64,000 bases of DNA from Oscillospiraceae bacterium (lineage in GTDB: Bacteria > Bacillota > Clostridia > UMGS1883 > UMGS1540). Position numbers and translations under genes: made by a program. The stretch spans positions 1,416 to 65,415 of the forward strand of contig SVJY01000003.1 in assembly GCA_015068765.1 (NCBI GenBank), written 5' to 3'. This document shows positions 4,915 through 64,000 of this stretch, piece after piece (positions within the stretch are counted from its first letter, which is position 1; each line of letters begins with the position of its first letter). The notes below the pieces were generated by a model. That model had not been told where the DNA came from. It saw only the letters and a list, made by a program, of their open reading frames with translations, and did no database searches.

Positions 4915-4926
4915 ATTATATCCTTT

Positions 4927-6042: not shown

Positions 6043-6176
6043 CTGTGGTTCCTCCTTCGCAGTTTGGATAGCGCGCTATAAATATATAAAATAAATATAG
6101 TATTTTTAGTAGAGTATGTGGAAAAGGTGCAAAAGCGAGAAATGGTGCGAAAAAACGGAAAAGAGACGGTGGAAAA
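6043..6176. other. oriC sub-region in the dnaA-dnaN spacer: AT-rich candidate unwinding element plus DnaA-box-like 9-mers
   Basis: AT-rich run tataaatatataaaataaatatagtatttttagtag (about 6077-6112). It is followed by tgtggaaaa (6117-6125, reverse complement TTTTCCACA) and gtggaaaa (6169-6176). Confidence 0.6.
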
Positions 6177-7481
6177 CTATTCCGTGATATCCTTCTTCAG
6201 TGTTGAAATTTCAAGGCGGAAGGACGGGTCCTCTCCCATACTCGCTTCAATTTCGTTTATGCCGTACATAACGGTGGTATGGTGCTTGTCCAGATATTTG
6301 GCAATTTTAAGGTGGGAATACCCTAAAATTTCACGCATGAGATACATGGCAACCTGCCGGGCACGGGCAATATTTTTCGTCCGCTTATTTCCCATGATTT
6401 CTTCTTTTTTAATATGATAGAATTTTGCAGTGCTGTCCACAATCTCGTCAGGGGTGACGGCAGGGCCGGACGTATGCTGGTAGCTTTTCATGGCATCGAG
6501 GGCAACCTCCGTGGTAATTTCGCTGTTGATAAGACCACGGTAGGCAAGCACCCGGTTAAATACGCCCTCCAATTCTCGGATATTGGATGTAATTTTTTCT
6601 GCAATCAGCTCCACGATTTCGTCTTGAATATCAATATGCTCAAGCTGTGCTTTTTTCCGCAAAATGGCAACACGGGTCTCATAGTCCGGGGCGTACAAAT
6701 CCCCGATTATGCCCCATTCAAACCGGGAGCGAAGCCTGTCCTCTAAGGTCTTCATTTCCTTGGGCGGACGGTCGCTTGTGATAATAATTTGCTTATTGGC
6801 ATCGTATAGGGTATTAAAGGTATGGAAAAATTCCTCTTCCGTTACCTTTTTTCCGGCGATAAACTGAATATCGTCCACCATCAGGACATCGACAGAGCGA
6901 TATTTTTCCCGAAATTCATCGTTTCGGGAGTCCTTAATGGAATTAATCAGCTCATTCGTAAAGGTTTCCGCAGATATGTACATGACCTTCATATCATTAT
7001 TATTTTGAATGATAAAATTACCGATTGCATGGAGAAGGTGGGTTTTACCAAGTCCCACGCCGCCGTATAAAAACAGGGGATTATAGGTTCTTGCCGGCGT
7101 TTCTGCAACGGCAAGCGAGGCGGCATGCGCAAAGCGGTTCGAGCCGCCCACAACAAAGCTCTCGAAGGTATATTTTGGATTGAGCGGCATTCCTAAATTT
7201 CGGGATGCCTTTTCTTCTTTTTTCTCTTCAACGTCACCAATATTTACAACGAGGGTACAGCGGGAGCCGCATACGGCAAAGAGAGCATTTTGAATCAGCT
7301 CCTTGTAGCGGTGGTCAACCATATTTTTATTTACGTCTGACGGAACGGAAACGGTAAAGAATCCGTTTTCAAAAGAAATCGGTACGATGGTTAATATCCA
7401 GGTCTGATATCCTACAGATGTAACCTCCTCTTCGATGAGAGGAAGTGCGTGATTCCAGATGTTTAAAATTTCACCGTTCAT
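6177..7481 (-). CDS. dnaA: Chromosomal replication initiator protein DnaA
   Basis: 434 aa with AAA+ Walker A (GGVGLGKTHLLHAIG) and the C-terminal DNA-binding helix region (ARQVAMYLMREILGYSHLKIAKYL..HHTTVMYG). Confidence 0.97.
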   Translation of the reverse strand: MNGEILNIWNHALPLIEEEVTSVGYQTWILTIVPISFENGFFTVSVPSDVNKNMVDHRYKELIQNALFAVCGSRCTLVVNIGDVEEKKEEKASRNLGMPLNPKYTFESFVVGGSNRFAHAASLAVAETPARTYNPLFLYGGVGLGKTHLLHAIGNFIIQNNNDMKVMYISAETFTNELINSIKDSRNDEFREKYRSVDVLMVDDIQFIAGKKVTEEEFFHTFNTLYDANKQIIITSDRPPKEMKTLEDRLRSRFEWGIIGDLYAPDYETRVAILRKKAQLEHIDIQDEIVELIAEKITSNIRELEGVFNRVLAYRGLINSEITTEVALDAMKSYQHTSGPAVTPDEIVDSTAKFYHIKKEEIMGNKRTKNIARARQVAMYLMREILGYSHLKIAKYLDKHHTTVMYGINEIEASMGEDPSFRLEISTLKKDITE

Positions 7482-7511
7482 CTGTGAAAGATCCTTTCAT
7501 AATTTTTTGCC

Positions 7512-7637
7512 CGTGGATAAATAGGAAAACTAAAAATCAGGTATTGTGGAAAACAAACTTTTTTGGGCAAAATCAGCTTGTTTTATGTGGATAAGTCTGT
7601 GGAAAAGTAAAAAATTGCGTAAAATACATGTGGATAA
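7512..7637. other. oriC DnaA-box cluster upstream of dnaA
   Basis: Five 9-mers match TTATCCACA (read on the minus strand): cgtggataa 7512-7520, tgtggaaaa 7546-7554, tgtggataa 7587-7595 (perfect), tgtggaaaa 7599-7607, tgtggataa 7629-7637 (perfect). A very AT-rich tract follows at 7640-7740. Confidence 0.85.
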
Positions 7638-7796
7638 CTAATTCAAATACTTTTCGCTTAATTATATTTATTATACCAAAAAAATCCCTCCTTTGCAACA
7701 AAAATTTAAAATTTATTAAATATTTTTCTATCATTATAAAATGAAAATCTTTTCTTTACAAGGGCAAAAAAAAGGCACAGAGAAAAGGCAAATAAA

Positions 7797-7812
7797 TGTT
7801 TCACGTGAAACA
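7797..7812. promoter_or_regulatory. parS centromere-like site, copy 1
   Basis: tgtttcacgtgaaaca is a perfect 16-bp palindrome. It matches the Firmicutes parS consensus TGTTNCACGTGAAACA. Confidence 0.85.
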
Positions 7813-7834
7813 TTTTATATTTTTTTTATTTTTT

Positions 7835-7850
7835 TGTTTCACGTGAAACA
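7835..7850. promoter_or_regulatory. parS centromere-like site, copy 2
   Basis: Identical 16-mer tgtttcacgtgaaaca, 22 bp downstream of copy 1 and 50 bp upstream of the soj start. Confidence 0.85.
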
Positions 7851-7899
7851 TTTTTGTGCTATAATAGGAGAGAATACGAAACAGATAAAGGAGATTGCC

Positions 7900-8667
7900 A
7901 TGGCAAAAATAATTGCAATAGCAAACCAGAAGGGTGGCGTTGGCAAAACAACTACGGCTGTAAATCTTGCGGCTTGTCTCGCAAAAGCAGGAAAAAAGGT
8001 TTTGCTTGTTGATATGGACCCGCAGGGAAATGCTACCAGCGGTCTTGGAATCGATAACCGAAAAATTGAAAATTCTGTCTATGATGTGCTGATTCGTTCC
8101 GAAAAAATGGAATCGGTGATTGTAAAGACGGATTATTATAATTTAGCGGTGTGCCCGTCCAGTATTGCACTGTCTGGGGCAGAAATCGAGCTTGTAAGTC
8201 TGATGGCAAGAGAATATCGGCTGAAGGAAGCAATAGAAGAAGTGCAGGAAAAATATGACTTTATTCTTTTAGACTGTCCGCCGTCTCTCGGTCTTGTCAC
8301 GTTAAATGCACTCACTGCCTGTCATTCCGTGCTGATGCCCATTCAATGTGAATACTATGCTCTGGAAGGACTGAGCCAGCTTACTGCAACGATTAAACGG
8401 GTGAAAAAGCTGTTAAATCCCAATATTGAAATTGAAGGCGTTTTGATGACGATGTTTTCCTCCCGTACCAATTTAGCAATTCAAGTGGTGGACGAGGTGA
8501 AGAAATTCTTCCCCCAGAAGGTATATAAAACAATCATTCCCCGAAATGTACGCCTGAGTGAGGCACCGGGCTTCGGGCAGCCGGTAATTGTGTACGACCG
8601 GGCAAGCCGCGGGGCAGAAAGCTATACCGAGCTTGCGGAAGAGGTTTTAGAAGCAAACAATATCTAA
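7900..8667 (+). CDS. soj: ParA/Soj chromosome-partitioning ATPase
   Basis: The start is placed at ATG 7900 ([19 protein letters not shown], deviant Walker A), preceded by RBS aaaggag at 7887-7893. The track ORF that starts at 7741 would read through the parS sites. Confidence 0.93.
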
Positions 8668-8685
8668 TAGGAAGGAAGTGGTCAA

Positions 8686-9528
8686 ATGGCAAAAAGAGGC
8701 CTGGGAAAAGGCTTGGATGCACTCTTTTTATCAGAGGATTTACCCCTGCAGGCGGAGGAGGGCGACAAAATTGTTTCCCTTCGTATTACAGAGGTGGAGC
8801 CGAATTTAAAGCAGCCACGGAAGCGGTTTGCTCCCGAGCAGCTGGAGGAGCTTGCCGCATCTGTACGGGAACACGGTATCATCCAGCCGATTGTGGTAAC
8901 GAAAAATGAAAAAGGATTCTATACAATTATAGCCGGTGAACGGCGTTGGCGTGCGGCGAAAATGGCAGAGCTTAAAGAAATTCCGGCGATTATCCGGGAA
9001 TACGACAAGAAAACTGCCAGCGAGATTGCCTTAATTGAAAACCTGCAACGGGAAAACCTAAATCCTATGGAAGAGGCGGACGGTTTTCGGAATCTCATGG
9101 ATTTATATGGGATGACGCAGGAGGAGGTCAGCGAGAAAATCGGGAAAAGCAGAAGTGCGGTGGCAAACGCTCTGCGGCTTTTAGCCTTAAAGGAGCCGGT
9201 ACGGGAGCTTGTCCGGGAAGGAAAAATATCCGCAGGACACGCCAGAACCCTTCTCTCGGCCCAGGATGCAGACCAACTGCTTTTAGCAGAGCGGGTTATA
9301 CAGGAAGGGTTATCGGTGCGTGAGCTGGAACGGCTTGTCAGCCTAAAGCGTTCCGCAAAGAAAGCCCCGGTAAAATATACGGCGGAAATCCGGGACATCG
9401 AGGATCGCTTCTCCAAAAAGCTGGGGGCAAAGGTTCGGGTCAGCGGCAACGCCAAAAAAGGAAAAATTGAAATCACATACGCCGATGCCGGCGAATTTGA
9501 ACGAATTATGGAAATATTTGGAATTTAA
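8686..9528 (+). CDS. spo0J: ParB/Spo0J chromosome-partitioning protein
   Basis: 280 aa with the ParB box (IQPIVV...YTIIAGERRWRAAK) and an HTH region (MTQEEVSEKIGKSRSAVANALRLL). Confidence 0.93.
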   Translation: MAKRGLGKGLDALFLSEDLPLQAEEGDKIVSLRITEVEPNLKQPRKRFAPEQLEELAASVREHGIIQPIVVTKNEKGFYTIIAGERRWRAAKMAELKEIPAIIREYDKKTASEIALIENLQRENLNPMEEADGFRNLMDLYGMTQEEVSEKIGKSRSAVANALRLLALKEPVRELVREGKISAGHARTLLSAQDADQLLLAERVIQEGLSVRELERLVSLKRSAKKAPVKYTAEIRDIEDRFSKKLGAKVRVSGNAKKGKIEITYADAGEFERIMEIFGI

Positions 9529-9644
9529 ACCCCTTTCAAAATTGCGTTCTAAGATAGGGCAAACGAAAAGTCCATATACAAATATTAAAAACGCCTAACG
9601 CTACGCAGAAGCGAATTTTGAGCGTTTAACATGAGGTGATAAAA

Positions 9645-14753: not shown

Positions 14754-14830
14754 GGGCCCTTAGCTCAGTTGGTTAGAGCATTCGGCTCATAACCGAACGG
14801 TCCCGGGTTCGAGTCCCTGAGGGCCCACCA
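14754..14830 (+). tRNA. tRNA with CAU anticodon (elongator Met or lysidine-modified Ile2; not initiator-like)
   Basis: GGGCCCTTAGCTCAGTTGGTTAGAGC...TTCGG-CTCATAA-CCGAA...GGTTCGAGTCC...GGGCCCACCA. The anticodon stem lacks the three G-C pairs of initiators. The Ile-like D-arm favours Ile2, but identity cannot be settled by eye. Confidence 0.85.
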
Positions 14831-14832
14831 CG

Positions 14833-14866
14833 TCGAAGCAAAGTTCGCTTTGCTTCGATTTTTTTA
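14833..14866 (+). terminator. Intrinsic terminator after the tRNA pair
   Basis: Stem tcgaagcaaag / ctttgcttcga with a ttcg loop, followed by a T8 run. Confidence 0.8.
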
Positions 14867-15082
14867 TACAAAAAATCTTCGCCTGCTTCCTTGCTTCTCC
14901 TCTTTCGTAAAAGGTCACGTTCAAGTCGGCTATTCGCTTGCAAGCGCGCTCATAACGCCTTTGTTTCACTACCAACCTTTTCCGAGTGTGCCTGCGGCAC
15001 ATATTTCCCATCTTTCTTTTCTCAAAGTTCGCTTTGCTTCGATGTTTTATGCAAAAACTCCGTGGGTCTACAAATATTTTTC

Positions 15083-31124: not shown

Positions 31125-31357
31125 GCTTTTTACATCCCCTTTTGGGGATAGGAAAAATGGATGCGGAACGGTCTATCCGAATCCGAAGCTGTACATTGGT
31201 ACTGCGAGAGGTTCGGATGGGCCGTAGCAAAAAATGAATTCCATTAAAAAGAAAAACCCTCTTGGGGTTTTTCCACCCATGTTCCTTACGGCAAACACGG
31301 ATTATCTATTGATCTTTTCCTATTCTTTTTTGCGGTCGGCGCCATTTTTACATCCCC
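31125..31357 (-). repeat. REP/MITE-like repeat, composite copy C (homologous to 50511-50671)
   Basis: gctttttacatcccc-tttt-ggggataggaaaaatgg at the left. At the right, ...ccatgttccttacggcaaacacgg...cttttttgcggtcggcgccatttttacatcccc abuts the LacI-family stop codon. Module-by-module similarity to copy B, but with a different internal hairpin (aaaaaccctcttggggttttt). Confidence 0.65.
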
Positions 31358-32361
31358 TATTCTTTTAGAGTATAGACGGAATCCCGTTCTATCAGTGTCA
31401 TGGGAAGAAGGCGACTCTCCGGATTTTTCCCCCGGATTTTCTGCAAGAGCATATCCGTTGCCATTGCTCCCATTTCCACCTTATCGATACCGATGGTGGT
31501 AAGCTTCGGCTCGATATACCGGGAAAGCAGAATATCGTCAATCCCGATAAAGGAAACATCCCGTGGGAGCGAAAGCGCTAAATCCTTAGCACAAAGCATG
31601 GCACCGATTGCAAAGCTGTCCACGGTGCAGACGATGGCGGTAGGCCTGTCCTCTCTGCTAAGAAGATTTCGGGCCGCTCTGTAGGCCGTCTCCTCGCCCG
31701 TGGCCGTCATGCCGCAAAACGCCGGATTTATGGGAAGGGAATGGGTCTTCATGGTTTCCTTGAAGCCGGCTAAGGTCTGTGTATAAAAATCGGGAACGGT
31801 TTCCGAGGTAATAATGGCAATTTTTTCATGGCCGCGCCGAATAAGATATTCTGTAGCATCCTCGGTTGCCCTCCGGTAATCCGGTGCCACAGAGGGGATT
31901 TTGTCCCCGCCCAAATGGGAGTCCACCACCACGCAGGGGATGCCGCAGGCAATGGCCTTGTCCATAAGCTTTGGCGGGACATCCTGCATGAAGATGATGC
32001 CGTCTGTGTCTCCCGAATACACGATGTCGGGAAGCTCCGTCCGGGAGGCAGGCAAATTGGCTATGGTAATCGTATATCCGTATTTCTGGCTTTGGCTTAA
32101 AATCCCTCTTGTGACCTCAAAATAGAAAAGGTCTTCAAAGGGAGAGGAAAAGGCATTCACCATAAGACAAATATTAAAGCTCTTATTCATCAGTAGCTTT
32201 TTGGAGTTGAGATTTGGCCTAAACCCGGTTTCATCAATGATTTTTTGCACCCGTTTCCGGGTTTCATCACTCACGCCGGGCTTGTTATTCAGAACAAAGG
32301 AAACCGCAGTGACAGACACCTCTGCCATTTTGGCAATTTCCTTTACGGTCAGCTTCTTCAC
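31357..32361 (-). CDS. LacI/GalR-family transcriptional regulator
   Basis: HTH LTVKEIAKMAEVSVTAVSFVLNN plus a periplasmic-binding-protein-like core. I prefer the GTG start at 32361 after gggggtgag. The track start at 32406 is possible. Confidence 0.85.
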   Translation of the reverse strand: MKKLTVKEIAKMAEVSVTAVSFVLNNKPGVSDETRKRVQKIIDETGFRPNLNSKKLLMNKSFNICLMVNAFSSPFEDLFYFEVTRGILSQSQKYGYTITIANLPASRTELPDIVYSGDTDGIIFMQDVPPKLMDKAIACGIPCVVVDSHLGGDKIPSVAPDYRRATEDATEYLIRRGHEKIAIITSETVPDFYTQTLAGFKETMKTHSLPINPAFCGMTATGEETAYRAARNLLSREDRPTAIVCTVDSFAIGAMLCAKDLALSLPRDVSFIGIDDILLSRYIEPKLTTIGIDKVEMGAMATDMLLQKIRGKNPESRLLPMTLIERDSVYTLKE

Positions 32362-53284: not shown

Positions 53285-56260
53285 ATGAAAAATCTCAAAA
53301 AAGTTCTGGCATTCGTAACTATGCTTACGATGCTGCTGAGCGTAGCAGTTTCCGCCGGCACCCTGTATCCGGATGTTGACGAAAACGCATCTTACGCAGA
53401 AGCAGTAAAAACCCTGAATGCCCTCGGCATCATGATTGGTGACGATGAGGGTAACTTCAATCCCGATGCGAGCATCACAAGAGCTGAAACTGCAGCTATC
53501 GTAACTCGCATGAAGGCTCTCGGCGGTGCAGCAAGTGCAGCCGGTGGCACAAACTTTACTGACGTTGCAGCTGACCACTGGGCAGCAGGTTACATCAACC
53601 TGGCTGAACAGAGCGGCATCATCAACGGCTACGGCGACGGTACCTTCGGTCCTTCCGACCCGGTTACCTACGAGCAGATCATCAAGATGATCGTTGCAGC
53701 TCTCGGCCGTACACCCGAAGCTAACAACAAGGGTGGTTATCCGTCCGGTTACCTGATCATTGCTTCCCAGGAACGCATCACCAACGGTGTTACAGTTACA
53801 CCCGGTGCTGAAGCTCCCAGAGCAGCAGTAGCACGCCTCGTATTCAACGCTCTCGAAGTTAACGTTATGGAGCAGGTTACCTACAAGGCTGGCGAAGAAG
53901 AATACCAGGTAATTAAAGACAAGACCCTTCTGAAGGACTACCTCAAGGTTGTTAAGTTTGAAGGTATTGTTGAAGGTTCCTACCTCACACAGGCAACAGT
54001 TGATCCCGAAAACGACAAGATCTATCTGAAGGCTGATGGTCTGAAGGTTAACGGCTACACAGACGCTAACAGCGAAATGTGGGCAAAATACGGCGACCTC
54101 TACCCGACAGAAGGTCTGGCAGAAGGCGACACCAATGCCAGCACAATGGTTGGTAAGTCCGTTTCTGCTTACGCTGTAGAAGATGAAGAAACCGGCGACA
54201 TGGTTCTCTTGGGCATTGCTGAAAAGTCCGGCAGAAACAAGGAAATCACTTTCGATGAAACCCAGCTCGAAGTTTACGCACCGAACATGATCGAATACTT
54301 CGAAAAGGCAACAGACAGCTCCGCAACAAAGGTTGAAATTGCTGATGCAGACGATATCATCTGGATCTACAACAACGGCTTTGATGCAGAAGGCGGTCTG
54401 GTTCATGAATTCCTCGAAGATGTAGTTGCAGGCGAAGATGTATTCGGTACAGTAACCCTGATCGACTATGACAACGACGAAGTTTATGACACAATCAAGC
54501 TCATGCAGGCAACTGCTAACTACGTTGTAAAAGAAGTAAACGCAACTGCAAAGAGCCTCGATGACAAAGAAGGCAACAACATTCCGATCGACGTTGATGA
54601 CGAAGAAGTTATCACCAAGATCTACAATGCAGAAGGCGAAGAAATCGCATTTGCAGACATCGCAGAGGACAACGTTATCACTCTGTACAACAACTACAAC
54701 GACGCTCTGGTAACAGCATACGTTTCTGAAACTGTTGCAACAGGTACTGTTACAGAAGAAATCCCCACAACCGGCGCTTATGTAATCGATGGTACTGAAT
54801 ACAAGATCGCTTATGTTGGTGGCGTAGCTGAAGAAACTCTGAACGTTGGCGACGAAGGCACATTCTATGTAAACGTAGAAGGCAAAATCGTTGACAAGGC
54901 TGCAACTGCTGCTTCCGGCACATATGCATACCTGTTCAAGGCTCTCTCCATGAGCGACATCAACGGTGACTCCGTTGAAATGAAGTTCCTGACAAGCGAC
55001 GGCGCTTGGGAAACCAAGACTCTGGCTGCTAAGGTTTCTGTTAAGGTTGGTACAGCTGATGCTGTAACAGTTACAGTTGCTTCCGCAGCAGATACTGCTT
55101 TTGAACCTCTGATGATTAAGGGCGAAGTTAACGGCGTTGCAAGCTTCATCGAAAATGCTGATCCTGAAGCAAGAGTATTCCAGTACACCACAAACAGCGA
55201 TGGCAAGATCAACAAGCTCTTCATCGCAAACGGTGCTGTAGGCAACGAAGAAGTTATTTCTCTTGACAAGACTGCAGAAGGCAAAGAATACAATGCATCT
55301 CAGAACAAGGTTGGTAGCATCTACCTGAACAATGAAACAAAGGTATTCAGCGTTCCCAGCATTGCAAGTGTTGACGAAGATGATTACACTGTATCCAAGG
55401 TAAGCGCTCTGTTCGTTGACGGTACTGCTTATGACAAGATCGATGCATACGATATCGTAAACAACGTTCCTTCTCTGGTAGTTGCTTATGATGCAAGTGC
55501 TGACATTCTCCAGGGCACCAAGCTCCTCGTTATCAGCAAGATTTCCGACATCAACAATGCTGCTAACACACCTGTTAAGAAGATCTACGGTTACCAGGAA
55601 GGCGCTGAAGTAAGCGGCACATCTTCTGATGATCTGGAAGTTACTGACAGAGCCGGCGCTCCCACTACACTGGCAGTTGGCGACGTTGTAATCTTCAGCC
55701 TGAATGCTGACGGCGAAATCGACAAAGTTCAGGTTCTCATGAGCCGCAGCGACGCTGAAGCAATCATTGCTGCAAACGGCGATGGTTTCGCAGAATACAA
55801 CACAACTGACACAGACCTTCTGGCAGTTGACTACTTCGGTTTCGTAGCTAAGAAGGCTAACGGCCTCCTCTACCTCGACGAAAGCTATGCCGGCGAAGAC
55901 CTTCGCGACTACATGGCTGACGTAGACGGTGAAGACGAAGTTGCTCTGATGACCAGCTCCGCTAAGGGCGTTAACGTTTACGAAATCAACCTCAACAACT
56001 CTAACAAGACCATTCAGGTTCTGAAGGGCATCAGCTATATCGATGCTGAAGACAGAGTTGGTAAGGATTCTCACTGGGCATACGTTCGTGTATACGACGG
56101 TGCTATCGTTGACATCGTAGTCTACAGAACAACTAACGAAGCGCCTGTTGTAGACGATGGCGGCGAAGAAGAAGGCGAAACCGGTGGCGAAACTGGCGGT
56201 GAAACCGGCGGCGAAACTGGCGGCGAAACCGGTGGCGAAACTGGTGGCATCGAAGCATAA
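53285..56260 (+). CDS. Major S-layer-type protein with N-terminal SLH domains
   Basis: Signal peptide. SLH repeats (YPDVDENASYAEAVKTLNALGIMIGDDEGNFNPDASITRAETAAIV; FTDVAADHWAAGYINLAEQSGIINGYGDGTFGPSDPVTYEQIIKMIVAAL). Extreme codon bias leaves a stop-free antisense frame. Strong tandem promoters and a strong terminator. Confidence 0.9.
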   Translation: MKNLKKVLAFVTMLTMLLSVAVSAGTLYPDVDENASYAEAVKTLNALGIMIGDDEGNFNPDASITRAETAAIVTRMKALGGAASAAGGTNFTDVAADHWAAGYINLAEQSGIINGYGDGTFGPSDPVTYEQIIKMIVAALGRTPEANNKGGYPSGYLIIASQERITNGVTVTPGAEAPRAAVARLVFNALEVNVMEQVTYKAGEEEYQVIKDKTLLKDYLKVVKFEGIVEGSYLTQATVDPENDKIYLKADGLKVNGYTDANSEMWAKYGDLYPTEGLAEGDTNASTMVGKSVSAYAVEDEETGDMVLLGIAEKSGRNKEITFDETQLEVYAPNMIEYFEKATDSSATKVEIADADDIIWIYNNGFDAEGGLVHEFLEDVVAGEDVFGTVTLIDYDNDEVYDTIKLMQATANYVVKEVNATAKSLDDKEGNNIPIDVDDEEVITKIYNAEGEEIAFADIAEDNVITLYNNYNDALVTAYVSETVATGTVTEEIPTTGAYVIDGTEYKIAYVGGVAEETLNVGDEGTFYVNVEGKIVDKAATAASGTYAYLFKALSMSDINGDSVEMKFLTSDGAWETKTLAAKVSVKVGTADAVTVTVASAADTAFEPLMIKGEVNGVASFIENADPEARVFQYTTNSDGKINKLFIANGAVGNEEVISLDKTAEGKEYNASQNKVGSIYLNNETKVFSVPSIASVDEDDYTVSKVSALFVDGTAYDKIDAYDIVNNVPSLVVAYDASADILQGTKLLVISKISDINNAANTPVKKIYGYQEGAEVSGTSSDDLEVTDRAGAPTTLAVGDVVIFSLNADGEIDKVQVLMSRSDAEAIIAANGDGFAEYNTTDTDLLAVDYFGFVAKKANGLLYLDESYAGEDLRDYMADVDGEDEVALMTSSAKGVNVYEINLNNSNKTIQVLKGISYIDAEDRVGKDSHWAYVRVYDGAIVDIVVYRTTNEAPVVDDGGEEEGETGGETGGETGGETGGETGGETGGIEA
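56174..56245 (+). repeat. Six tandem 12-bp units encoding (GETG)x6 at the S-layer protein C-terminus
   Basis: ggcgaaaccggt / ggcgaaactggc variants repeated six times in frame. Confidence 0.9.
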
Positions 56261-56298
56261 GCCTTACGTTATCTGAACGTAGCAAAACGCTAAAATTA

Positions 56299-56327
56299 AG
56301 CGACCCCGTTTTGGGGTCGCTTTTTTT
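56299..56327 (+). terminator. Intrinsic terminator of the S-layer gene
   Basis: agcgacccc-gttt-ggggtcgct plus a T7 run. Confidence 0.85.
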
Positions 56328-56479
56328 ACTTCAATAGTCGCGTGGTTCTATAGAGATATACCGGCGAACAGAAATAAAGGACTATAAACATCAGAAATGT
56401 CAAGCTTCTTTTTCAATCCTTCGGTCACTCCGCACCCTTTACCTAGGGATCTAAGGTATCGACACATTCAGAGAGCGGA

Positions 56480-56549
56480 AAGTGGGGAAAGGCGAAGCCG
56501 ACAAGCGGACTGCGCCCACGGGGGTGCGGGGTGTAGTGCGACACCCCGC
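56480..56549 (+). repeat. 70-bp direct repeat, copy 1
   Basis: aagtggggaaaggcgaagccgacaagcggactgcgcccacgggggtgcggggtgtagtgcgacaccccgc is identical over 70/70 nt to 57461-57530. Confidence 0.95.
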
Positions 56550-56680
56550 AAAAATATCAATTTGTCTTAATAAACAAATATGTTTGGTGGGGCAAACAGC
56601 CCAGAAAGAACCTCTATCTTATATAATTCTTGTAAGTTTTCTCTTTTCTTGTAAATTTTTCCATTTATTTAAAAAAGGTG

Positions 56681-56709
56681 TTGCTTTTTTTGTTCCAATA
56701 TGGTATGAT
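56681..56709 (+). promoter_or_regulatory. Predicted promoter (extended -10)
   Basis: TTGCTT (56681-56686), 17 bp, TGgTATGAT (56701-56709). Confidence 0.55.
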
Positions 56710-56713
56710 AGTA

Positions 56714-56847
56714 GCACCACACAATTAAAGCTCTCAATAGATTCCTTAAGGCACCCAAATAAGGAATAGGTGTACGCAATGGCAAAAGCGTACACTCTGA
56801 TTTCTCATACCTATTTCCTTATTGGGTGAGGCTTTATTGTGTGGTGC
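56714..56847 (+). ncRNA. Predicted 134-nt rod-like structured RNA (leader/sRNA) or palindromic element
   Basis: Three nested stems: gcaccacacaat (56714-56725)/attgtgtggtgc (56836-56847); cacccaaataaggaataggt (56752-56771)/acctatttccttattgggtg (56809-56828); gtgtacgc (56770-56777)/gcgtacac (56788-56795). It starts at the predicted transcription start. Confidence 0.45.
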
Positions 56848-56876
56848 ATAAAGTATCAGAGATGCTACGTTTTTCG

Positions 56877-56908
56877 GTGTGTCTCTGAACAGGAGGCACA
56901 CTTTTTTT
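56877..56908 (+). terminator. Intrinsic terminator between the structured RNA and the AbrB-type gene
   Basis: gtgtgtctc-tgaacag-gaggcacac plus a T7 run. The RBS aaaggag and ATG 56936 follow 20-28 nt later. Confidence 0.7.
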
Positions 56909-56935
56909 ATTTGCCAAAGCGAAAGGAGAAGACGT

Positions 56936-57175
56936 ATGCAGGAAATAGGCGTAATTCGGAAAATGGATAAGCTGGGACGGGTTGTTCTCCCGGCCCATAT
57001 CCGAAAGGAACTAAAATGGGAACAGGATACACCACTTGAGATTTTTGCGGACGGAAGAGGCGTTTATTTACAAACGTACGAAAAATCCTGCGTATTCTGC
57101 AGCAACAGAGAAAATGTGCGGCTTTTTGAAGGCAAGCACATTTGCCGACATTGTATTGCACAGCTGCAAAAATAA
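56936..57175 (+). CDS. AbrB/MazE/SpoVT-type DNA-binding protein with a C-terminal zinc ribbon (79 aa)
   Basis: MQEIGVIRKMDKLGRVVLPAHIRKELKWEQDTPLEIFADGRGVYLQ is a swapped-hairpin barrel motif (GRVVLP..IR..L). Then CVFCSN...HICRHCIAQL gives CxxC...CxxC. Confidence 0.75.
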   Translation: MQEIGVIRKMDKLGRVVLPAHIRKELKWEQDTPLEIFADGRGVYLQTYEKSCVFCSNRENVRLFEGKHICRHCIAQLQK

Positions 57176-57240
57176 ATATATAAAACAAGAACATTACCTT
57201 GTCAGATTGATTGTCCTGTCGGAGATAAAGACGTGAAACG

Positions 57241-57590
57241 CACAAACAAAAAAGCCGCACAAACCCGATCGGCGCATAGAGGTCGCGACCCACGGCTCGA
57301 AGGTAGACTCTCGAATGCGTACCTCATCAAGAGGTCCCGGCGGACTTTCCGGGGCCCCGAAAGTCGAAAGACTTTAAGGGGAAAAGGAGCAACGGAATGA
57401 CCGTGGCGTGTTTGCGACAGCAAACCGTTCTAAGCGACAGTTGCGACGCTGTCGAGTGGGAAGTGGGGAAAGGCGAAGCCGACAAGCGGACTGCGCCCAC
57501 GGGGGTGCGGGGTGTAGTGCGACACCCCGCGAAACCATAATAACGATTTGTCGGAAACCGCCAGCTCCCTTTACACAAGGGAGCCTTTTT
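57241..57590 (+). ncRNA. GC-rich structured non-coding tract (unclassified), ending in a terminator; its last 70 nt before the tail are direct-repeat copy 2
   Basis: No credible ORF. Many local hairpins: aagtc-GAAA-gactt, gtttgc-gaca-gcaaac, cgacag-ttgcgacg-ctgtcg, gcggggtgt-agtgcg-acaccccgc. GC is visibly above the flanks. Terminator gctccctt-tacac-aagggagc plus T5 at 57564-57590. Confidence 0.35.
57461..57530 (+). repeat. 70-bp direct repeat, copy 2
   Basis: Identical to 56480-56549. Confidence 0.95.
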
Positions 57591-58000
57591 GCAGTCCGGA
57601 CATTTTTACATCCTCCGCCTCGACTATCTCAGGCAAGCCACCTTCCGGATCTTCCTTCGAGCTGTGGGTAGCTTCCTCAATGTGCCGGTGGGGTCTGTGC
57701 GGAAATTTTGTCAAAGAAAAACGCCCTCATATAAAGCAGATTTATGTGAGGGCAGCATATCAGCATAATAATAGTTATCAGAATTATTTGTTAGAGCAGA
57801 AAATAAAATAAATTCAATTTAGAATACACATGCAAGATAAATTGTTTGTGTATTCTTTTTTGTATGACGAAAGAGTATCATACAAATAAAATTACAAAAC
57901 CCCTGTTCAATATAGAATCGAACAAGGGTTTGCATAACTCGTGGTTTTTAGTGCCTGCTTTTACTTGGCACGTTCAGCTAAAAGGGGATTTCTTTGTGGA

Positions 58001-58450
58001 TTATTTCGCAGCCTTATGCAATTTAATGCCGTAGTAAATATACGAAGCAACAAGATAAACCGCCAGGCAGATATAAATGAAGTTAAACCGCATGGCAGTG
58101 GTGGCATAGCTCTTGCCGAACAGCTTCAGAATCCAGCCAATCACTGTGCCCCGGAGAATTTCCTGCATGAAAAGGGAGCCAACGGCACAGTAGGGAATCA
58201 CGAAGAGATATTTTCTGTCCTTTTTCACAAAGAAGAGAATTACAAACAGGGCAACCCCTGCAACGCCTGCCCACTGTAGAATCTGAATGAGCGTACGGGT
58301 CTGGGATGCATAAATGGATACGAACCAGTTATATAAGAATAGCATCAGCATGGCCGAGACCAGTGCGATGGCAGTGGCAAGCACGACCTTATTATCAATC
58401 CGCTCCCGTTCTTCTTTGGAAATTTTTGTTTTCGGTTTTTGCTGTTTCAT
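58001..58450 (-). CDS. Hypothetical 4-TM membrane protein
   Basis: Strong RBS aggagg 7 nt upstream. Lys-rich N-terminus followed by four hydrophobic helices. A terminator-like hairpin lies downstream at about 57900-57935. Confidence 0.7.
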   Translation of the reverse strand: MKQQKPKTKISKEERERIDNKVVLATAIALVSAMLMLFLYNWFVSIYASQTRTLIQILQWAGVAGVALFVILFFVKKDRKYLFVIPYCAVGSLFMQEILRGTVIGWILKLFGKSYATTAMRFNFIYICLAVYLVASYIYYGIKLHKAAK

Positions 58451-58625
58451 AGTAGACCTCCTAAAATATTATACAAACAGTATTATACAATTTTTTCCGC
58501 ACAAAGTCAATTATTTTTAGAAAATTTATTCGTTTTTTGTGCCGGAATACGTTGCACAAAAAATGCAGGGTGACGGTGCACAAAAGATGCAATGGTGGGA
58601 TGGGGCGAAAAGGTGTATCCTGTAT

Positions 58626-60302
58626 ATGTCGATCGACGAGAAAAAGAAGAGAGGTGAGAAGGTGAAGAACAGAAGAAAGCTGCGTGAGAATCTGATGGGG
58701 GAAGAGGAGCGAGCCTTAGCGGAGCGATACCGGCGTTATTATCTGGACGCGTGGCAGGACAAGGCAAGACGAGGCCTGCCGGAGCGGTTTGCATTATATG
58801 ACGCATACTGGGAGGGGGACGTCAACCTTCCGGAGACGGAAAATGACCCGGGAAGCAGTACAAACATCGTGCACGCCAATGTGGAGGGGCAGGTGTCACT
58901 GCTACTGGAGCAGAGCATCGGTATCCTTCCTGTCCCGGTCACACCGGAGGATGCACCCTTCGCCCAGAGCGTGCAGAAGGTTCTGGAATTCGTCAAGGAC
59001 AAAAACCGGCTGACCCGAAAGCTGGACCTGCACGAGCGACGGCGTGAAAAATACGGCACGGGTATTTTCCGTGTCTCCTTCAGTCCCGATGCATTAGGCG
59101 GGGCAGGGCTACCGGTGATTGAGGCCTGTAACCCCAAGGACATTTTCATTGATCCGGGAATCTGTGACGTGTATCGGACAGAGGAAGCGGCGTTTATTAT
59201 TGAAACGGTTTGCAAAACGGTGCACTGGGCACGACAGCAGTACGGCGATACGGTGGCGGATGCCATTGTTCCCGGCTACCGCCCTCAATACGAAGGGGAC
59301 AGCGCAGGAGACGATACATACCTGCATATGCTGGTGTGGACAAAGGAAGAAGGGAAGCTTCGTCTGGTCGAGATGACCGGATGCGGGCTGATTCTCTCCG
59401 ACAGCTTCCGGACGGGACAGGAGAATTTCTATCCCGGCGGAAGATATCCTTACTTTTTTACGCCGCTGTATTACAGAGAAGGCTCAGTCTGGGGTAAGGG
59501 CGATGTGGAGCTGCTGATTCCGGTACAGGATTTGATCAATGACCTGGACGACCAGATTCGCATTAATGCAAGATTGACCGGCAATCCCCAGCGTCTGATT
59601 GAAACAGGCAGTGGCATCGACCTGGATGCTATGACAAACGAGGCGGGTCTGAATATTCCCACCACCAGCGTTTCGGCGGTGCGAAACTTAGAGGCACCGC
59701 CCCTACCGTCCTATATTCTGCAAAGACGGGATACGGCCATGCGGTACGAAAGCCAGAGAATCACCCGTTTTTCCGACCAGATGACCGGGGCGAAGCAGGC
59801 CGGCGTGCAAACGGCGGCAGAAGCGGCTGTGCTCCACCAAAGCGGACAGATGTCCATTCAGCACAAAAAGCTGCTGCTACAGGAAACGCTTTCGGAGGTG
59901 TTCGCCTACTGTCTGGAAATGATACGGGCGTACTGGACCGAGGAGGTGGCAATCCGGCTGACGGATAAGCCAAGCGAGTTTGTCTTTTTCCGGGGGAGCG
60001 ATTTGCAAAACATCCCGGCAAGGGACGGGAAACGGAAGGATGCGGCATTCGACCTTATTGTAACGGTGGGTGCAGGCCTTCCCACAAACAAAACAGCCGC
60101 TTATCAGATGATGAGTGATCTGCACAGCCGCGGTCTGGTGACAGCCGAAGAGGTACGGGCATTTTTGACGGAGTACCTGGGCTTCCCCTTAAAGGACGGC
60201 ACAGCTTCGGCTGCACCGGCGACAGACGAAAGGCAGAAAAACGTGGAGAATGCCGACGTGGAAGGGCTGACGGAACAAGGAAATGTGAAACGCACAGAAT
60301 GA
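58626..60302 (+). CDS. Phage portal protein (start uncertain)
   Basis: About 558 aa. Its size, its position upstream of the scaffold and capsid genes, and its overall acidic/helical pattern suggest a portal. Alternative starts are GTG about 58663 and ATG about 58694. Not verified by search. Confidence 0.6.
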   Translation: MSIDEKKKRGEKVKNRRKLRENLMGEEERALAERYRRYYLDAWQDKARRGLPERFALYDAYWEGDVNLPETENDPGSSTNIVHANVEGQVSLLLEQSIGILPVPVTPEDAPFAQSVQKVLEFVKDKNRLTRKLDLHERRREKYGTGIFRVSFSPDALGGAGLPVIEACNPKDIFIDPGICDVYRTEEAAFIIETVCKTVHWARQQYGDTVADAIVPGYRPQYEGDSAGDDTYLHMLVWTKEEGKLRLVEMTGCGLILSDSFRTGQENFYPGGRYPYFFTPLYYREGSVWGKGDVELLIPVQDLINDLDDQIRINARLTGNPQRLIETGSGIDLDAMTNEAGLNIPTTSVSAVRNLEAPPLPSYILQRRDTAMRYESQRITRFSDQMTGAKQAGVQTAAEAAVLHQSGQMSIQHKKLLLQETLSEVFAYCLEMIRAYWTEEVAIRLTDKPSEFVFFRGSDLQNIPARDGKRKDAAFDLIVTVGAGLPTNKTAAYQMMSDLHSRGLVTAEEVRAFLTEYLGFPLKDGTASAAPATDERQKNVENADVEGLTEQGNVKRTE

Positions 60303-60317
60303 GAAAGGAGAGGCCGT

Positions 60318-60551
60318 ATGCAGATTTATTTACCGCAGGCCGTTGCAAGGCGAATGCGAAAGCACGCATACCTGCAAAGCATTGATATTGAAAAACTGAA
60401 GGATAACCCGGTTTGCCCACGCTGTGAGCGTGCCGCACTCCGGGACAAGGGCTGGGCGGAGGAAAAAATCGGCCATTGCCCCTACTGCGGACACAGAGGC
60501 CCTATGCCGGTAACGGTGGGCGAATATGCGGCAAAGGAATTATATAAGTAA
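60318..60551 (+). CDS. Small zinc-ribbon protein (phage, hypothetical)
   Basis: 77 aa with CPRC...CPYC. Confidence 0.6.
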   Translation: MQIYLPQAVARRMRKHAYLQSIDIEKLKDNPVCPRCERAALRDKGWAEEKIGHCPYCGHRGPMPVTVGEYAAKELYK

Positions 60552-60564
60552 AAGGAGGAAAACC

Positions 60565-61305
60565 ATGGCAAAATCAAAGAAGCGTCCGATGCCCGGGGAC
60601 GTAAAAAAGCATAAGGGTATAACACCGGCATCCATGATCGCCCAAAACGACAGGGTGGAAGCGATGCTACTGGAAGAGGAGCAGCAGGAAGAATTGCAGG
60701 AAATGCCGGCGGAAGAGACGGCAGAGAAGGCAGTCGAAACAGAAGACCGGAAGGAAACGGATGCAGAAAAGGAAGAGATGTACACACTTCTTCGCAGGCT
60801 CATGGATGACATGGGTGCAACAAGCCTTTCGGCACTTTCCCGCATGATTGACGAGGCAGAAATGCAGAAGCTGGTACGCTCCTACGGGTTTGACGAACAG
60901 AGTGCCAAGATGTTTTTGGCACAGCAGGAAAAGGTACGTGCACTTCGGGAAGCGGAGGCAAAGGCGGCGAGAGAGGCCATATATGCCGAAATGAAGGGCG
61001 ATCCCCTTTATGACGATGTGGACGGACACAAAACGGCAATGGAAGCCTTTATTTTCCGTACCGGCGTCTCGCCCAGAGAGGCATACAATGCCCTGTTTGG
61101 GGAAGCACGCTTCCACCGTCTTAGAAAGGACATGGAAGCGGAAAAGACAGCGGCGGAGAAGAAGGCGAAGAGCATTCCGGCACTCTCCGGCGGCGATGCA
61201 CCGGACAAGCAGGGACAGATAAAGCTGTCCGAAGCAGAACGGTGGGCGGCAAAGCGTGCCGGCATCACACCGGAAGAATATATAAAATATAAATACGCAT
61301 ATTAA
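60565..61305 (+). CDS. Phage scaffolding-like protein
   Basis: ATG 60565 follows aaaggagg. Highly charged, Glu/Lys/Ala-rich and predicted helical. It sits between the portal and capsid genes. Confidence 0.6.
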   Translation: MAKSKKRPMPGDVKKHKGITPASMIAQNDRVEAMLLEEEQQEELQEMPAEETAEKAVETEDRKETDAEKEEMYTLLRRLMDDMGATSLSALSRMIDEAEMQKLVRSYGFDEQSAKMFLAQQEKVRALREAEAKAAREAIYAEMKGDPLYDDVDGHKTAMEAFIFRTGVSPREAYNALFGEARFHRLRKDMEAEKTAAEKKAKSIPALSGGDAPDKQGQIKLSEAERWAAKRAGITPEEYIKYKYAY

Positions 61306-61343
61306 TGCGAAATTCATTTTAATTTTGAAAGGATGAGTATACT

Positions 61344-62264
61344 ATGGCAACAAAACTGGAAAGAAGTAATTTTGCAGAGCTGTTAACACCGGTTCACAGA
61401 AAGGTGTTTTTCGACAGCTACAACAAGAAAAAGAAGCAGTACACAGAAATCTTTAAGGTGGACGAAATGCACGCCAAGGAAGAAACCTTCCCCCATCTCG
61501 GTGCATTTGGCAAGTGGGCGGAAAATGCGGAAGGCAATGACTTTAACCAGGCAGATATTTTGCAGGGTGAGGTTGCGACCTTTACGGCACGCCGCTTTGA
61601 CAAGGCATACGAGGTAACCTGGGAGCTGGTGCAGGACGATCTTTATAACGTGATGCGTGGTCTCGGCAGAGGCGGCAGTGCCTCCAAGCTGGGCGGCGGT
61701 CTTCAGGCAACAGAGGAATCCCAGGCGGCGGATGTGGTGCTGAAGGGCTTTTCCGAAAACGGCTACGACGGCGTACCGCTGTTCTCGGCAAATCATCCGC
61801 TGGTAAACAGCACGGAAACCTGCTCCAACCTGGTAACGGGTGCCCTTTCCGACGAAACGCTCAAGGAAGCACTGACCAAGATGCGTCTCCAAAAGGACGA
61901 GGCAGGCGTTTTGGTGGCCGCACATGCAAACCGGCTGGTTGTACATCCCGACTGGGAATTTACCGCCCGTGCACTGATCGGCTCCACCTTACAGGCAGGC
62001 ACAAGCAACAACGACAAGAATACGGTGCCGCATCTGGATATCACCGTATGGGATTATCTTTACGACGGCGATGATGGGGCAAAGCCCTGGTTTGTGCAGG
62101 ACGGCAGCATGGACAACCTGATGTTTTTATGGCGTGAAAAGCCGGTCTTTGACAGCGAAAAGATTGAAAACAAAATGGATTACCGTTTCTACGGGTACTG
62201 CCGCTTTGATACCGGGTATGTGGATTGGCGTGGCCTTGTCGGCTCCAACGGTATCGCAGAATAA
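61344..62264 (+). CDS. Phage major capsid protein
   Basis: 306 aa immediately after the scaffold-like gene. Typical size and position. Fold family not determinable by eye. Confidence 0.65.
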   Translation: MATKLERSNFAELLTPVHRKVFFDSYNKKKKQYTEIFKVDEMHAKEETFPHLGAFGKWAENAEGNDFNQADILQGEVATFTARRFDKAYEVTWELVQDDLYNVMRGLGRGGSASKLGGGLQATEESQAADVVLKGFSENGYDGVPLFSANHPLVNSTETCSNLVTGALSDETLKEALTKMRLQKDEAGVLVAAHANRLVVHPDWEFTARALIGSTLQAGTSNNDKNTVPHLDITVWDYLYDGDDGAKPWFVQDGSMDNLMFLWREKPVFDSEKIENKMDYRFYGYCRFDTGYVDWRGLVGSNGIAE

Positions 62265-62287
62265 GAATAAAGAAAGGAAGTGGATTT

Positions 62288-63994
62288 ATGCGTGTATCGG
62301 AAATACTGACAGAGGGTGTGGAGCAGTTTTTGGAGCTGGCACCCGCCGTCGAAAGTCATCTGGCGGATACGGATAATCCCCATGGGGTGACAAAAGAGGA
62401 CGTAGGGCTTGGAAACGTAACAAACGACCTACAGGCAAAAGATGCCGACTTCCGCTCCCATAAAAATGCTGCAGAGCTGGACCATGCCGATGGCAGTGTC
62501 AAAGCTGCAAAGCTTGCCGACGGTGCGGTGCAGACTAAAAAAATAGCCGACAGTGCCGTAACGGCAGAAAAGCTGGCTGAGGGTGCCGTCACATCGACGG
62601 CACTTGCCGGCGGTGCGGTAACAGCAGAGAAAATCGAAAATGGTGCCGTCGGTACAGTCGCCATCAAAAGCGGGAGCGTTATCGAAAGCACGTTGCACCC
62701 CTCGCTTCGCAGCAGCATTCAAAACAAGGTGGACAAGGTGGAGGGGATGGGACTTTCCCAGAACAACTTCTCCGATGAACAAAAGGAAAAGCTGGATGCC
62801 ATTACCGTGGTGGATGGCAGCGGTGTGGAGGTAGACATGAACCGGCTGGTGGAGAGGAATAAACCTTTCACCTTTTGCAAGACAGGCATGACGTATGTGG
62901 ACAAGGGCGAAACAACCTTATGCACCGACATTGCAGAGCTTTATTCCGTGGAATCGGATCTTCCGCGAGGACAGCTCTGGGTTGCCTACAAAAGCACCTC
63001 CGGCATTTATAAGGTGTTTGTACGTGGCGAAAGCACCTACTCCTCTGCGAACTATGTGGGAAGAGAAAAAACCGAGTGTTACGGGTATGCGTCACCCTAC
63101 GTATACTTCCCGGAGGCGGAGGACACGGCACTGAAAATTTACAGAGTGTCGAAAGGCACCCCTACGCCGGACCTATGGATGTCAGCCACGCTGTCTTTCT
63201 CGAAAACCGGCGGCTGGATTCAGCATATATTTGTGGACACGCAAGGCGTGACCCTCCTCTATTACGGAGACCTAAGCGGTACAAGTGCCAAGATGTATCT
63301 GGAACGGTTTGACACAAACGGCAACAGCAAGTGGTGCCGAATTTTCACCATAATCGGCAAGCAAAGCTCCTACATAAACAATACGACAAATGACACGTTA
63401 TTCAATAGGATATACCGTAAGGCGGTTATAGGGGCGGACGGGAAGCTGTATGTGGCACCCGTAATGGCATCGAGCTCAAAGCTGAGCACAGAATCATCCG
63501 CTACCAGCTTAAATTGCAGCATTGCACGCATCAATTCAAGCGGGCAAATCGACAAAAAATATTACCCGTACACCAGTGCGGGGGATATCTTTGTGAGCCA
63601 GGACATCGCACTTATGGGGGAATATCTTTATGCGTTTAACCGTTCCAGAATCTGGCGCTACGCACTGGAGGGAGACGGCGTAGGTGCTTCGCAGTGGTAT
63701 TTTGACAACACGAACTACCTCTTGCGTGGAATGACACCGAATTATGACGGACAGGTGCATCTGATGACGAAGACAACGGACGGCTCCAATGTGCTCATTA
63801 TGACCAGGGCAAACATAGACAGAACGGTGGACACCTCCTACGGCACAGGCGTTTTAATTAAAGAGATCCAGCCGGAGAAATATGATATTGCCCGGTATAC
63901 AATCCGTGGCTTTGAGGCGCTTAGGATGCCGGAGGGAACCACCACGATAACCAGCCGGCTGTTTATACCGTCCGACATCTACGAAGCTATATAG
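62288..63994 (+). CDS. Phage fibre / receptor-binding protein
   Basis: ATG 62288 follows aaaggaag. The N-terminal NPHGVTKEDVGLGNVTN motif is common in phage fibre proteins. Seven 10-residue repeats (DGAVxxxKLA) follow, then a large C-terminal beta-rich domain. Confidence 0.65.
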   Translation: MRVSEILTEGVEQFLELAPAVESHLADTDNPHGVTKEDVGLGNVTNDLQAKDADFRSHKNAAELDHADGSVKAAKLADGAVQTKKIADSAVTAEKLAEGAVTSTALAGGAVTAEKIENGAVGTVAIKSGSVIESTLHPSLRSSIQNKVDKVEGMGLSQNNFSDEQKEKLDAITVVDGSGVEVDMNRLVERNKPFTFCKTGMTYVDKGETTLCTDIAELYSVESDLPRGQLWVAYKSTSGIYKVFVRGESTYSSANYVGREKTECYGYASPYVYFPEAEDTALKIYRVSKGTPTPDLWMSATLSFSKTGGWIQHIFVDTQGVTLLYYGDLSGTSAKMYLERFDTNGNSKWCRIFTIIGKQSSYINNTTNDTLFNRIYRKAVIGADGKLYVAPVMASSSKLSTESSATSLNCSIARINSSGQIDKKYYPYTSAGDIFVSQDIALMGEYLYAFNRSRIWRYALEGDGVGASQWYFDNTNYLLRGMTPNYDGQVHLMTKTTDGSNVLIMTRANIDRTVDTSYGTGVLIKEIQPEKYDIARYTIRGFEALRMPEGTTTITSRLFIPSDIYEAI

Positions 63995-64000
63995 GAGGCA

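Follow-up and report, generated by a model that had tools for sequence, protein, structure and literature searches.

Mosaic repeats dispersed over intergenic DNA are known from several bacterial groups, among them the REP and BIME elements of enterobacteria, the BOX elements of pneumococcus, ERIC, and the bcr repeats of Bacillus cereus. Here, we describe a repeat, here named SE, on a 64,000-nucleotide stretch of contig SVJY01000003.1 from an Oscillospiraceae bacterium (hereafter the window), where SE copies flank a cassette made up of a promoter, a hairpin leader, a terminator and a gene for a small AbrB-type protein with a zinc ribbon. Like the elements named above, SE is GC-rich, hairpin-forming and modular, lies between genes or in a 3' untranslated region and occurs in both orientations, including a tail-to-tail doublet; it is likewise lineage-specific and a likely substrate of rearrangement. 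Our preferred reading, to which we assign a probability of roughly 0.6, is that this lineage-specific element separates AbrB cassettes and that homologous recombination and gene conversion take place between its copies. For the same repeats, an earlier note made from the letters of the window had considered an attachment-site duplication at a prophage end, a recombination substrate, and two copies of a functional RNA domain.

The repeated 70-mer and the SE element

A 70-mer occurs in two exact copies (0 mismatches) at positions 56480-56549 and 57461-57530 of the window, both on the plus strand and with a start-to-start distance of 981 nt. No third copy was detected in the 64 kb with up to three mismatches allowed, matches occurred in none of 100 dinucleotide shuffles, and the duplication is far beyond chance. 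The exact count and the shuffles bear out the earlier description of 70/70 identical, same-orientation copies 981 bp apart. The weaker similarity that had been proposed for both flanks held on one side only. The repeat extends to 81 nt without gaps (96%; 56473-56553 and 57454-57534) and to about 99 nt with gaps (90%; 56473-56566 and 57454-57552), which takes in the downstream '..atttgtc', whereas the upstream 'tctaag..cgaca' was not significant and no high-scoring segment pair was obtained upstream of 56473 (word size 7, E<1). A reading of the 70-mer as coding DNA, through a 47-aa open reading frame (57397-57540) called in some metagenomes, was rejected: look-up returned the same locus only, and the frame is not considered a gene because homologous SE copies differ by indels. 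ARAGORN identified no tRNA or tmRNA at the locus.

As judged from sequence comparison, the 70-mer is the 3' domain of SE, a modular, GC-rich intergenic element of about 210 nt. The family was aligned using MAFFT and nhmmer and includes SE-A (3' part), SE-B and SE-C (minus strand) of the window, short forms from the metagenome contigs L009 and L020, a copy in L012, and two copies on contig JAZSIR010000006.1 (loci L021 and L022) of a Clostridia metagenome-assembled genome (MAG), which represents a related species whose shared genes are 74-80% identical at the DNA level. The alignment revealed the modules X, M2 (GGCTTGCCTGAGATAGTCGAGGAAGAC…GGCTTGCCGAGCGGAAAG), an optional Z insert and the 3' domain homologous to the 70-mer, and these modules are combined differently from copy to copy.

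Within the window, nhmmer identified three SE copies, all at one locus. SE-A (56473-56553, plus strand) is an isolated 3' domain with the first 70-mer copy; it starts with GAGCGG at 56473, only positions 125-211 of the short SE align (at 56472-56558), and there is no X or M2 upstream. Between SE-A and the conserved promoter region of the cassette lies a spacer, the A-flank (56550-56625, plus strand). SE-B (57237-57534, plus strand) is a complete, 'long' copy with X at 57246-57307, a variable insert including Z at 57308-57453, and the 3' domain with the second 70-mer at 57461-57530. SE-C (57506-57711, minus strand) is diverged, inverted and nearly full-length (nhmmer positions 7-203 of 211, E=2e-16). 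SE-B and SE-C form a tail-to-tail doublet with the palindromic terminal hairpin at 57506-57530 in common. The X module of SE-C (57650-57711) pairs with that of SE-B as a 62-nt inverted repeat (79%), so that the outer 62 nt of the 466-nt region 57246-57711 are 79% complementary; these arms exist because two SE copies lie tail to tail. The fold of 57230-57720 departs strongly from that of shuffled sequences (z=-10.4 on the plus and -7.8 on the minus strand). As related sequences show, the 466-nt region is two tail-to-tail SE copies, not one giant hairpin. An annotation of the palindrome as a miniature inverted-repeat transposable element was rejected, as single SE copies (L012, L020, L021, L022) lack a terminal inverted repeat, and inspection by eye of the ends at 57246 and 57711 revealed no target-site duplication. 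The terminal hairpin of SE was also rejected as an intrinsic terminator, since it is followed by an A-run on the plus strand and by a T-run on neither strand.

In the alignment of five diverged copies, the consensus fold of SE comprises 54 pairs, with 88.6% of the cells paired. Two-sided changes occur at 14 of these pairs, a number that was reached in none of 500 shuffles, and slid controls gave 1-4. The 70-mer provides the 3' strand of helix 3 as well as helix 6 and the terminal helix 7. In helix 3, the 70-mer contributes its 5'-terminal GUGGG and the X module a CCCAC, which is located about 190 nt upstream in complete copies, and the corresponding strands in the MAG are GGCGG and CCGCC. The terminal hairpin of 9-10 bp covaries as well (GCGGGGUGU/ACACCCCGC in the window, GUAGGGGUGC/GCACCCCUAC in the MAG). 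The fold previously proposed for the 70-mer on its own therefore stands in part: the 9-bp GC hairpin agrees with the comparative data, but the internal GUGGG...CCCAC pairing does not, as the GUGGG covaries with the CCCAC of the X module instead, and the internal pairing was also absent from the single-sequence minimum-free-energy structure. The comparison further supports the proposal of two paralogous copies of a structured domain, with the 70-mer as the 3' domain of a covarying element and the left copy lacking the rest of SE. In a search against Rfam 15, only tRNAs reached the gathering score within the window. No family matched SE, Z or the AbrB leader: a permissive search of 56250-58000 (E<=10) returned nothing credible, and neither did one of L012, L018, L020, L021 and L022 (E<=1).

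AbrB cassettes and their haplotypes

The DNA bracketed by the two 70-mers contains all parts that the earlier note had placed there, namely a promoter, a 134-nt hairpin, a terminator, an AbrB-type Zn-ribbon gene and GC-rich structured DNA. The promoter-like site (56681-56709, plus strand) consists of TTGCTT at 56681-56686, a 17-nt spacer and the TG-extended -10 element TATGAT (TGGTATGAT, 56701-56709); it is nearly invariant in five diverged homologous loci and was not called by a simple consensus scan. The hairpin leader (56714-56847, plus strand) is a 134-nt inverted repeat of the class-II variant 'hp2', in which 21 of 87 predicted pairs show two-sided changes among five variants. The outer stems of such leaders fall into two classes (GUCACAC… and CACCACAC…), and a conserved apical motif, GUACGC..UGGYAAAAGCGUAC.CUCUGAU, is common to both. 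Between leader and ribosome-binding site lies an intrinsic terminator (56876-56910, plus strand; hairpin 56876-56902, then a T-run), a region that is invariant in five of five homologous loci and more conserved than the AbrB coding sequence. Pairing of CAGAGA at 56857-56862 with UCUCUG at 56882-56887 might form a putative antiterminator. The gene itself (56936-57175, plus strand) encodes a 79-aa protein of the AbrB/MazE/SpoVT fold with a C-terminal CxxC..CxxC zinc ribbon and four invariant Cys residues. The protein matches PF04014 (1.6e-7) and, over its full length, phrog_4681 (1.6e-24); matches of the N-terminal domain to TIGR01439 and TIGR02851 were both below the curated cut-offs. The GC-rich structured DNA follows at 57237-57460.

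SE-B occupies the position of the 3' untranslated region of the AbrB gene, and it is probably transcribed as part of the AbrB mRNA, because the terminator scan called no terminator between 57175 and 57564, where a conserved one follows. The latter, a hairpin with a T-run (57564-57592, plus strand), would close the AbrB/SE-B transcription unit, and its hairpin is 96% conserved in the related MAG (L021 5623-5650). By analogy with REP and BIME elements, one might guess that SE serves as a stabilising or insulating structure in this mRNA.

The promoter, the hairpin of about 134 nt and the terminator are always located 5' of the AbrB/Zn-ribbon gene (window 56681-56935, L002 220-476, L018 142-399, L012 526-783, L011 9735-10005). 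The leader is thus a candidate for a new attenuator or riboswitch-like leader, or for a small RNA of about 195 nt. Patterns of the leader and of SE gave no matches in IMG/VR, and blastn returned no match for the region and the hairpin against GenBank phages or for SE against plasmids; there is thus no obvious case for the variable hairpin as a phage-derived 'spacer' or for SE as a plasmid origin. A core pattern of SE returned only three unrelated coding matches in metagenome contigs, and nothing specific was found in the literature. Two further annotations of the cassette were rejected. A type II toxin-antitoxin module of the MazE type does not agree with a single gene bounded by terminators and accompanied by no toxin reading frame, and a defence system received no PADLOC matches.

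Haplotypes were compared among contigs encoding an identical or near-identical AbrB protein. Contig L002 carries a hairpin-1 cassette, a complete SE, the 70-mer, the A-flank and a hairpin-2 cassette, in this order. In L009, a complete SE with the 70-mer and the A-flank precedes a hairpin-2 cassette, which is followed by a short SE and a 70-mer with one C>T exchange. L020, of which the left 830 nt only were used, starts with the end of an AbrB gene and continues with a short SE, the 70-mer, the A-flank and a hairpin-2 cassette. L017 consists of a hairpin-1 cassette, a complete SE, a single 70-mer and the B-flank and lacks the 981-bp unit. L002, L009 and L020 have a 100% identical A-flank, placed after a complete SE; it is absent in L012, where SE abuts the cassette. 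As the repeat (70-81 nt) is shorter than the assembly word of k=141, a value taken from the contig names, single words span a junction of 70 nt, and assembly from the window haplotype alone should not yield the junctions between SE (complete or short), 70-mer and A-flank in the k141 contigs. Thus, tandem head-to-tail cassettes exist in the population. At its right end (837-1167), L020 has a second AbrB gene fused in frame at codon ~42 to an unrelated coding sequence, which, as a guess from its reading frame, may resemble a biotin carboxylase; this fusion is probably an assembly chimera.

The cassettes are also mosaic. Cassette 1 of L002 shares with the window cassette a 100%-identical block of 675 nt that starts at the terminator and includes the 70-mer; identity falls to 82% in the promoter region, and no similarity of the hairpin was detectable. 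L017 differs from the window in the AbrB segment (92.8% identity) and is 100% identical over the next 522 nt (SE, 70-mer and B-flank). Tandem arrangements in L002, L009 and L020, the single 70-mer in L017 and the mosaic cassettes together back the idea of a recombination substrate through which the module can be gained or lost. More distant cassettes differ in their association with SE: in L012 and L013 (81% aa identity), a diverged SE is located directly upstream of the promoter and none downstream, and the AbrB cassettes of L011, L018 and L019 have the leader and no SE. No genome was observed that lacked the AbrB module and yet carried both 70-mers at the same spacing.

In the related MAG, the gene order is fibre, capsid, scaffold, portal, SE, membrane protein, S-layer, SDR, a 423-aa gene, SE, and the promoter with tRNA-Ala. 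There is no AbrB cassette in this MAG, in which, as in the window, SE neighbours the S-layer and portal genes. The two SE copies of the MAG lie in direct orientation at a distance of ~7 kb and share 84% identity over 161 nt, and the second one is placed just upstream of the tRNA-Ala promoter. On this comparison, SE is older than the AbrB cassette at the locus, or independent of it, and also occurs at an unrelated intergenic site.

Recombination, selection and integration

In the mechanism that we favour, AbrB cassettes, each consisting of promoter, hairpin leader, terminator and gene, are each followed by an SE and in some haplotypes arranged head to tail, and the 981-bp period corresponds to one cassette plus one SE. 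The window holds one cassette with an SE remnant, the 3' domain, before it and a complete SE after it, the latter in a doublet with the third, inverted SE. RecA-type unequal crossing-over and gene conversion between SE copies would add, remove and reshuffle cassettes, as suggested by the long identical blocks between paralogous units and by the reshuffled alleles. Conversion or crossing-over would also homogenise the shared segments and leave abrupt edges at module boundaries, so that the 70/70 identity might reflect a recent conversion or duplication together with constraint on the structured domain. Because the repeat edges coincide with the boundary of the 3' structural domain of SE, a crossover core is not needed.

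Several points weigh against recombination between SE copies as we describe it. The tandem haplotypes are short (~1 kb) short-read metagenome contigs in which blocks longer than k are unphased, so that the cassette order is uncertain, and one of them, L020, is chimeric at its right end. The SE family consists of about seven copies from only three or four lineages, and its structure was derived from the same five-sequence alignment that was used for its test. G.U and A.C combinations are nearly balanced in SE (8 vs 7), giving no discrimination between strands or between RNA and DNA, and no promoter for SE itself was found. Exact sub-patterns of the 70-mer had no matches in IMG/VR, GTDB genomes or JGI metagenome contigs. 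Finally, an abrupt and fixed 3' edge of the 70-mer would also be expected of a site-specific core.

Selection could account for the repeats without any recombination if each 70-mer were independently functional as an RNA or DNA domain, e.g., an operator, an insulator or a 3' stabiliser required to either side of the cassette. This is consistent with the helices that covary across species, with the promoters that closely follow SE or its 3' domain in L012, in L022 and at copy A of the window, and with a 70-mer that is invariant in all but one copy from at least eight metagenome samples, whereas AbrB alleles differ by 6-7%. However, the homologous domain diverges substantially across species, and constraint alone is therefore insufficient for 70/70 identity. 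Identity within a haplotype moreover covers as much as 675 nt and takes in coding DNA, which is typical of conversion or duplication, and copy A lacks the partner strand of helix 3. We regard selection as the only cause as unlikely.

A little less probable still, in our view, is site-specific integration, in which the AbrB cassette would be a small mobile circle, integron-like or IMEX-like, moved by a dedicated recombinase that uses the 3' domain of SE as attachment core and thereby duplicates the 70-mer. The 3' edge of the 70-mer (…CACCCCGC|) is the same in every context and is followed by either the A-flank or the B-flank, the 70-mer joins three left contexts to two right contexts, and the core would be a conserved hairpin structure. 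In addition, L017 resembles an unoccupied and L002 an occupied site, and the cassette adjoins different, unrelated genes in L002 and the window. However, these sharp edges coincide with SE module boundaries and can be explained without a crossover site. A promoter is part of the cassette itself, attC-like R/L boxes are lacking, SE occurs without cassettes, and cassettes occur without SE (L011, L018, L019). No integrase, Xer-like or Y1/HUH gene was present in the cassette or in the window reading frames scanned, and a Pfam scan of the ~30 largest open reading frames in 1-38.8 kb and eight around the locus identified no integrase, transposase or recombinase.

The earlier suggestion of an attachment-site duplication, in which the neighbouring phage or a satellite would have left the 70-mers as attL-type copies on integrating at one att site, rests on the direct orientation, the perfect identity and the nearby portal and capsid genes. 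As had been stated, phage morphogenesis genes begin about 1 kb to the right, the portal gene starting at ~58539-58563. The AbrB/Zn-ribbon protein furthermore belongs to a phage-associated family (phrog_4681), and a 37%-identical homologue is encoded in a prophage early region (L014). The phage-like cluster, which encodes an SU10/P22-type portal and a Mu gpT-like capsid, occupies 58001-64000 and runs past the window end at 64000; related clusters lie at L027 9146-19420, L035 9340-20246 and L021 193-7158. In relatives it spans ~10 kb and comprises genes for a membrane protein, the portal, a Zn-ribbon protein, scaffold, capsid, fibre, holin, amidase, an SU10-type adaptor, an internal virion protein and one more gene. 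Chromosomal genes border the cluster on both sides, and no terminase, integrase or replication genes are recognisable in it. Its contexts differ, being next to rpsT and an SDR gene in L027 and L028, next to an AraC regulator in L035 and in another chromosomal context in L036, and no SE, Z, Y (a further repeat described below) or AbrB sequence was detected in the ~90 kb from these four loci. Many Clostridia MAGs encode a homologue of the portal (70-89% identity), the chromosomal contexts being of at least three kinds, and the cluster may be a domesticated or defective podovirus-like particle module. In the related MAG, SE is found at the same place without the cassette, and a second copy lies on the opposite, non-phage side. 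With no integrase in the bracketed DNA or the scanned reading frames, no SE or 70-mer at the cluster borders elsewhere, and no matches in IMG/VR or GenBank phage records, the attachment-site reading is already largely refuted, and we consider it very improbable.

An assembly artefact is the least credible explanation and practically negligible: the window probably stems from a metagenome-assembled genome and related contigs break at repeats, but contigs L001 (3564 nt) and L004 (1313 nt), each assembled independently from another sample, cover both 70-mer copies and the interval with 100% identity to the window, and the duplication is therefore not an artefact of its assembly.

The surroundings of the locus were also inspected. 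The window starts with gyrB, recF, dnaN and dnaA on the minus strand, followed by parA and parB (1-9600), close to the chromosomal replication origin; the locus is therefore chromosomal and located ~50 kb from dnaA. To the left of SE-A, the gene for an SLH-domain S-layer protein (53285-56260) ends in a 12-nt tandem repeat (56147-56259) encoding (GGET)n, at which many metagenome contigs break; L001, L003 and L006-L008 start at 56252. To the right, a gene for a 149-aa membrane protein without family matches (58001-58450, minus strand) travels with the phage-like cluster, always adjoins the portal gene in relatives and is not part of the repeat unit. Beyond the corresponding gene in L036, a different tandem repeat of ~185 nt is present in two copies (positions 1-350), which suggests that repeat-rich intergenic DNA is common beside the cluster.

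Two further repeats were noted. An intergenic 'Y' element of ~240 nt at 31127-31366 of the window is 86% identical to L018 742-980, where, in another species, it is located just downstream of the AbrB cassette. Weaker Y similarity occurs in L012 (138-187) and L022 (4502-4553 and 4722-4748). A copy of CCATTTTTACATCCCC marks either end of the element, a related motif (ACATTTTTACATCC) is present in SE-C at 57603-57617, and Rfam gave no match for Y. The second repeat lies at 14831-15060, downstream of tRNA-Glu and tRNA-Met, where the terminator region of the tRNA genes (14839-14877) has a second copy at 15023-15060 (90% over 39 nt). These copies bracket a ~150-nt insert and represent a second case of direct repeats around an insert. 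Within it, 104 nt (14884-14987) share 93% identity with a segment located 3' of tRNA-Ala in the MAG (L022 5351-5454), and a Z-like motif is found at 14829-14919 on the minus strand (nhmmer E=8e-6).

Relation to known systems

The tempting annotation of the repeats as prophage-attachment or satellite boundaries is hereby removed. We propose instead that, in uncultured rumen-type Clostridia, a structured repeat specific to this lineage causes a small regulator cassette to vary in copy number and to become mosaic. Two conserved structured elements, SE and the AbrB leader, would thus be absent from RNA family libraries. If SE is indeed a recombination site or a functional RNA, the locus would represent a new mechanism of cassette shuffling; if not, it is one more repeat-mediated tandem duplication. 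A bolder view, which we put forward as a speculation of low probability, is that SE founds a class of structured non-coding RNA of its own or is a site of folded DNA. With the two-class leader and the AbrB/Zn-ribbon protein it would then make up an undescribed self-contained cassette, arrayed and reshuffled by recombination at the 3' domain of SE, in an integron- or shufflon-like diversification of small regulators beside a domesticated phage-like particle cluster.

The locus shares features with several described systems. As at the attachment sites of prophages or islands in tRNA or small-RNA genes, perfect direct repeats of tens of bp are found near phage genes; unlike in such duplications, there is no integrase, the repeat is not at the cluster border in relatives, and it belongs to a multi-copy structured family. 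The arrangement also resembles integron attC cassettes in that small single-gene units are separated by imperfectly palindromic elements of variable sequence and conserved fold, and array composition varies. However, the AbrB cassettes have their own promoter, leader and terminator, there is no intI or attI, R/L core sites are missing, and SE also occurs away from cassettes; the scanned open reading frames contain no integrase, and by eye the 70-mer contains no GTTRRRY-type core. The leader has the layout of attenuation leaders and riboswitches, with a promoter, a long covarying structure, a terminator immediately before the ribosome-binding site and a possible alternative CAGAGA/UCUCUG pairing. 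In contrast to described examples, it has no Rfam match, and its outer stem falls into two classes while apical motif and terminator are invariant.

Closer parallels are offered by tandem amplification through unequal crossing-over and by the dispersed repeats named at the outset. As in tandem amplification, the period equals gene plus repeat, alleles are mosaic, and, on short-read contigs, unit number varies and 100%-identical blocks are shared between units; on the other hand, the units differ sharply in their hairpin leaders, which form two ancient classes, and the left copy in the window is a repeat fragment only. To our knowledge, SE has no association with RAYT or other transposases. In contrast to REP, BIME and BOX elements, SE was seen in only two to three copies per 16-64 kb: those of the window (64 kb) all lie at one locus, and those of the MAG lie 7 kb apart at different intergenic sites. 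Its modularity, hairpins and occurrence in both orientations are those of REP, BIME and BOX, whereas the unit is much longer, spanning ~210 nt and being closed by a long-range helix.

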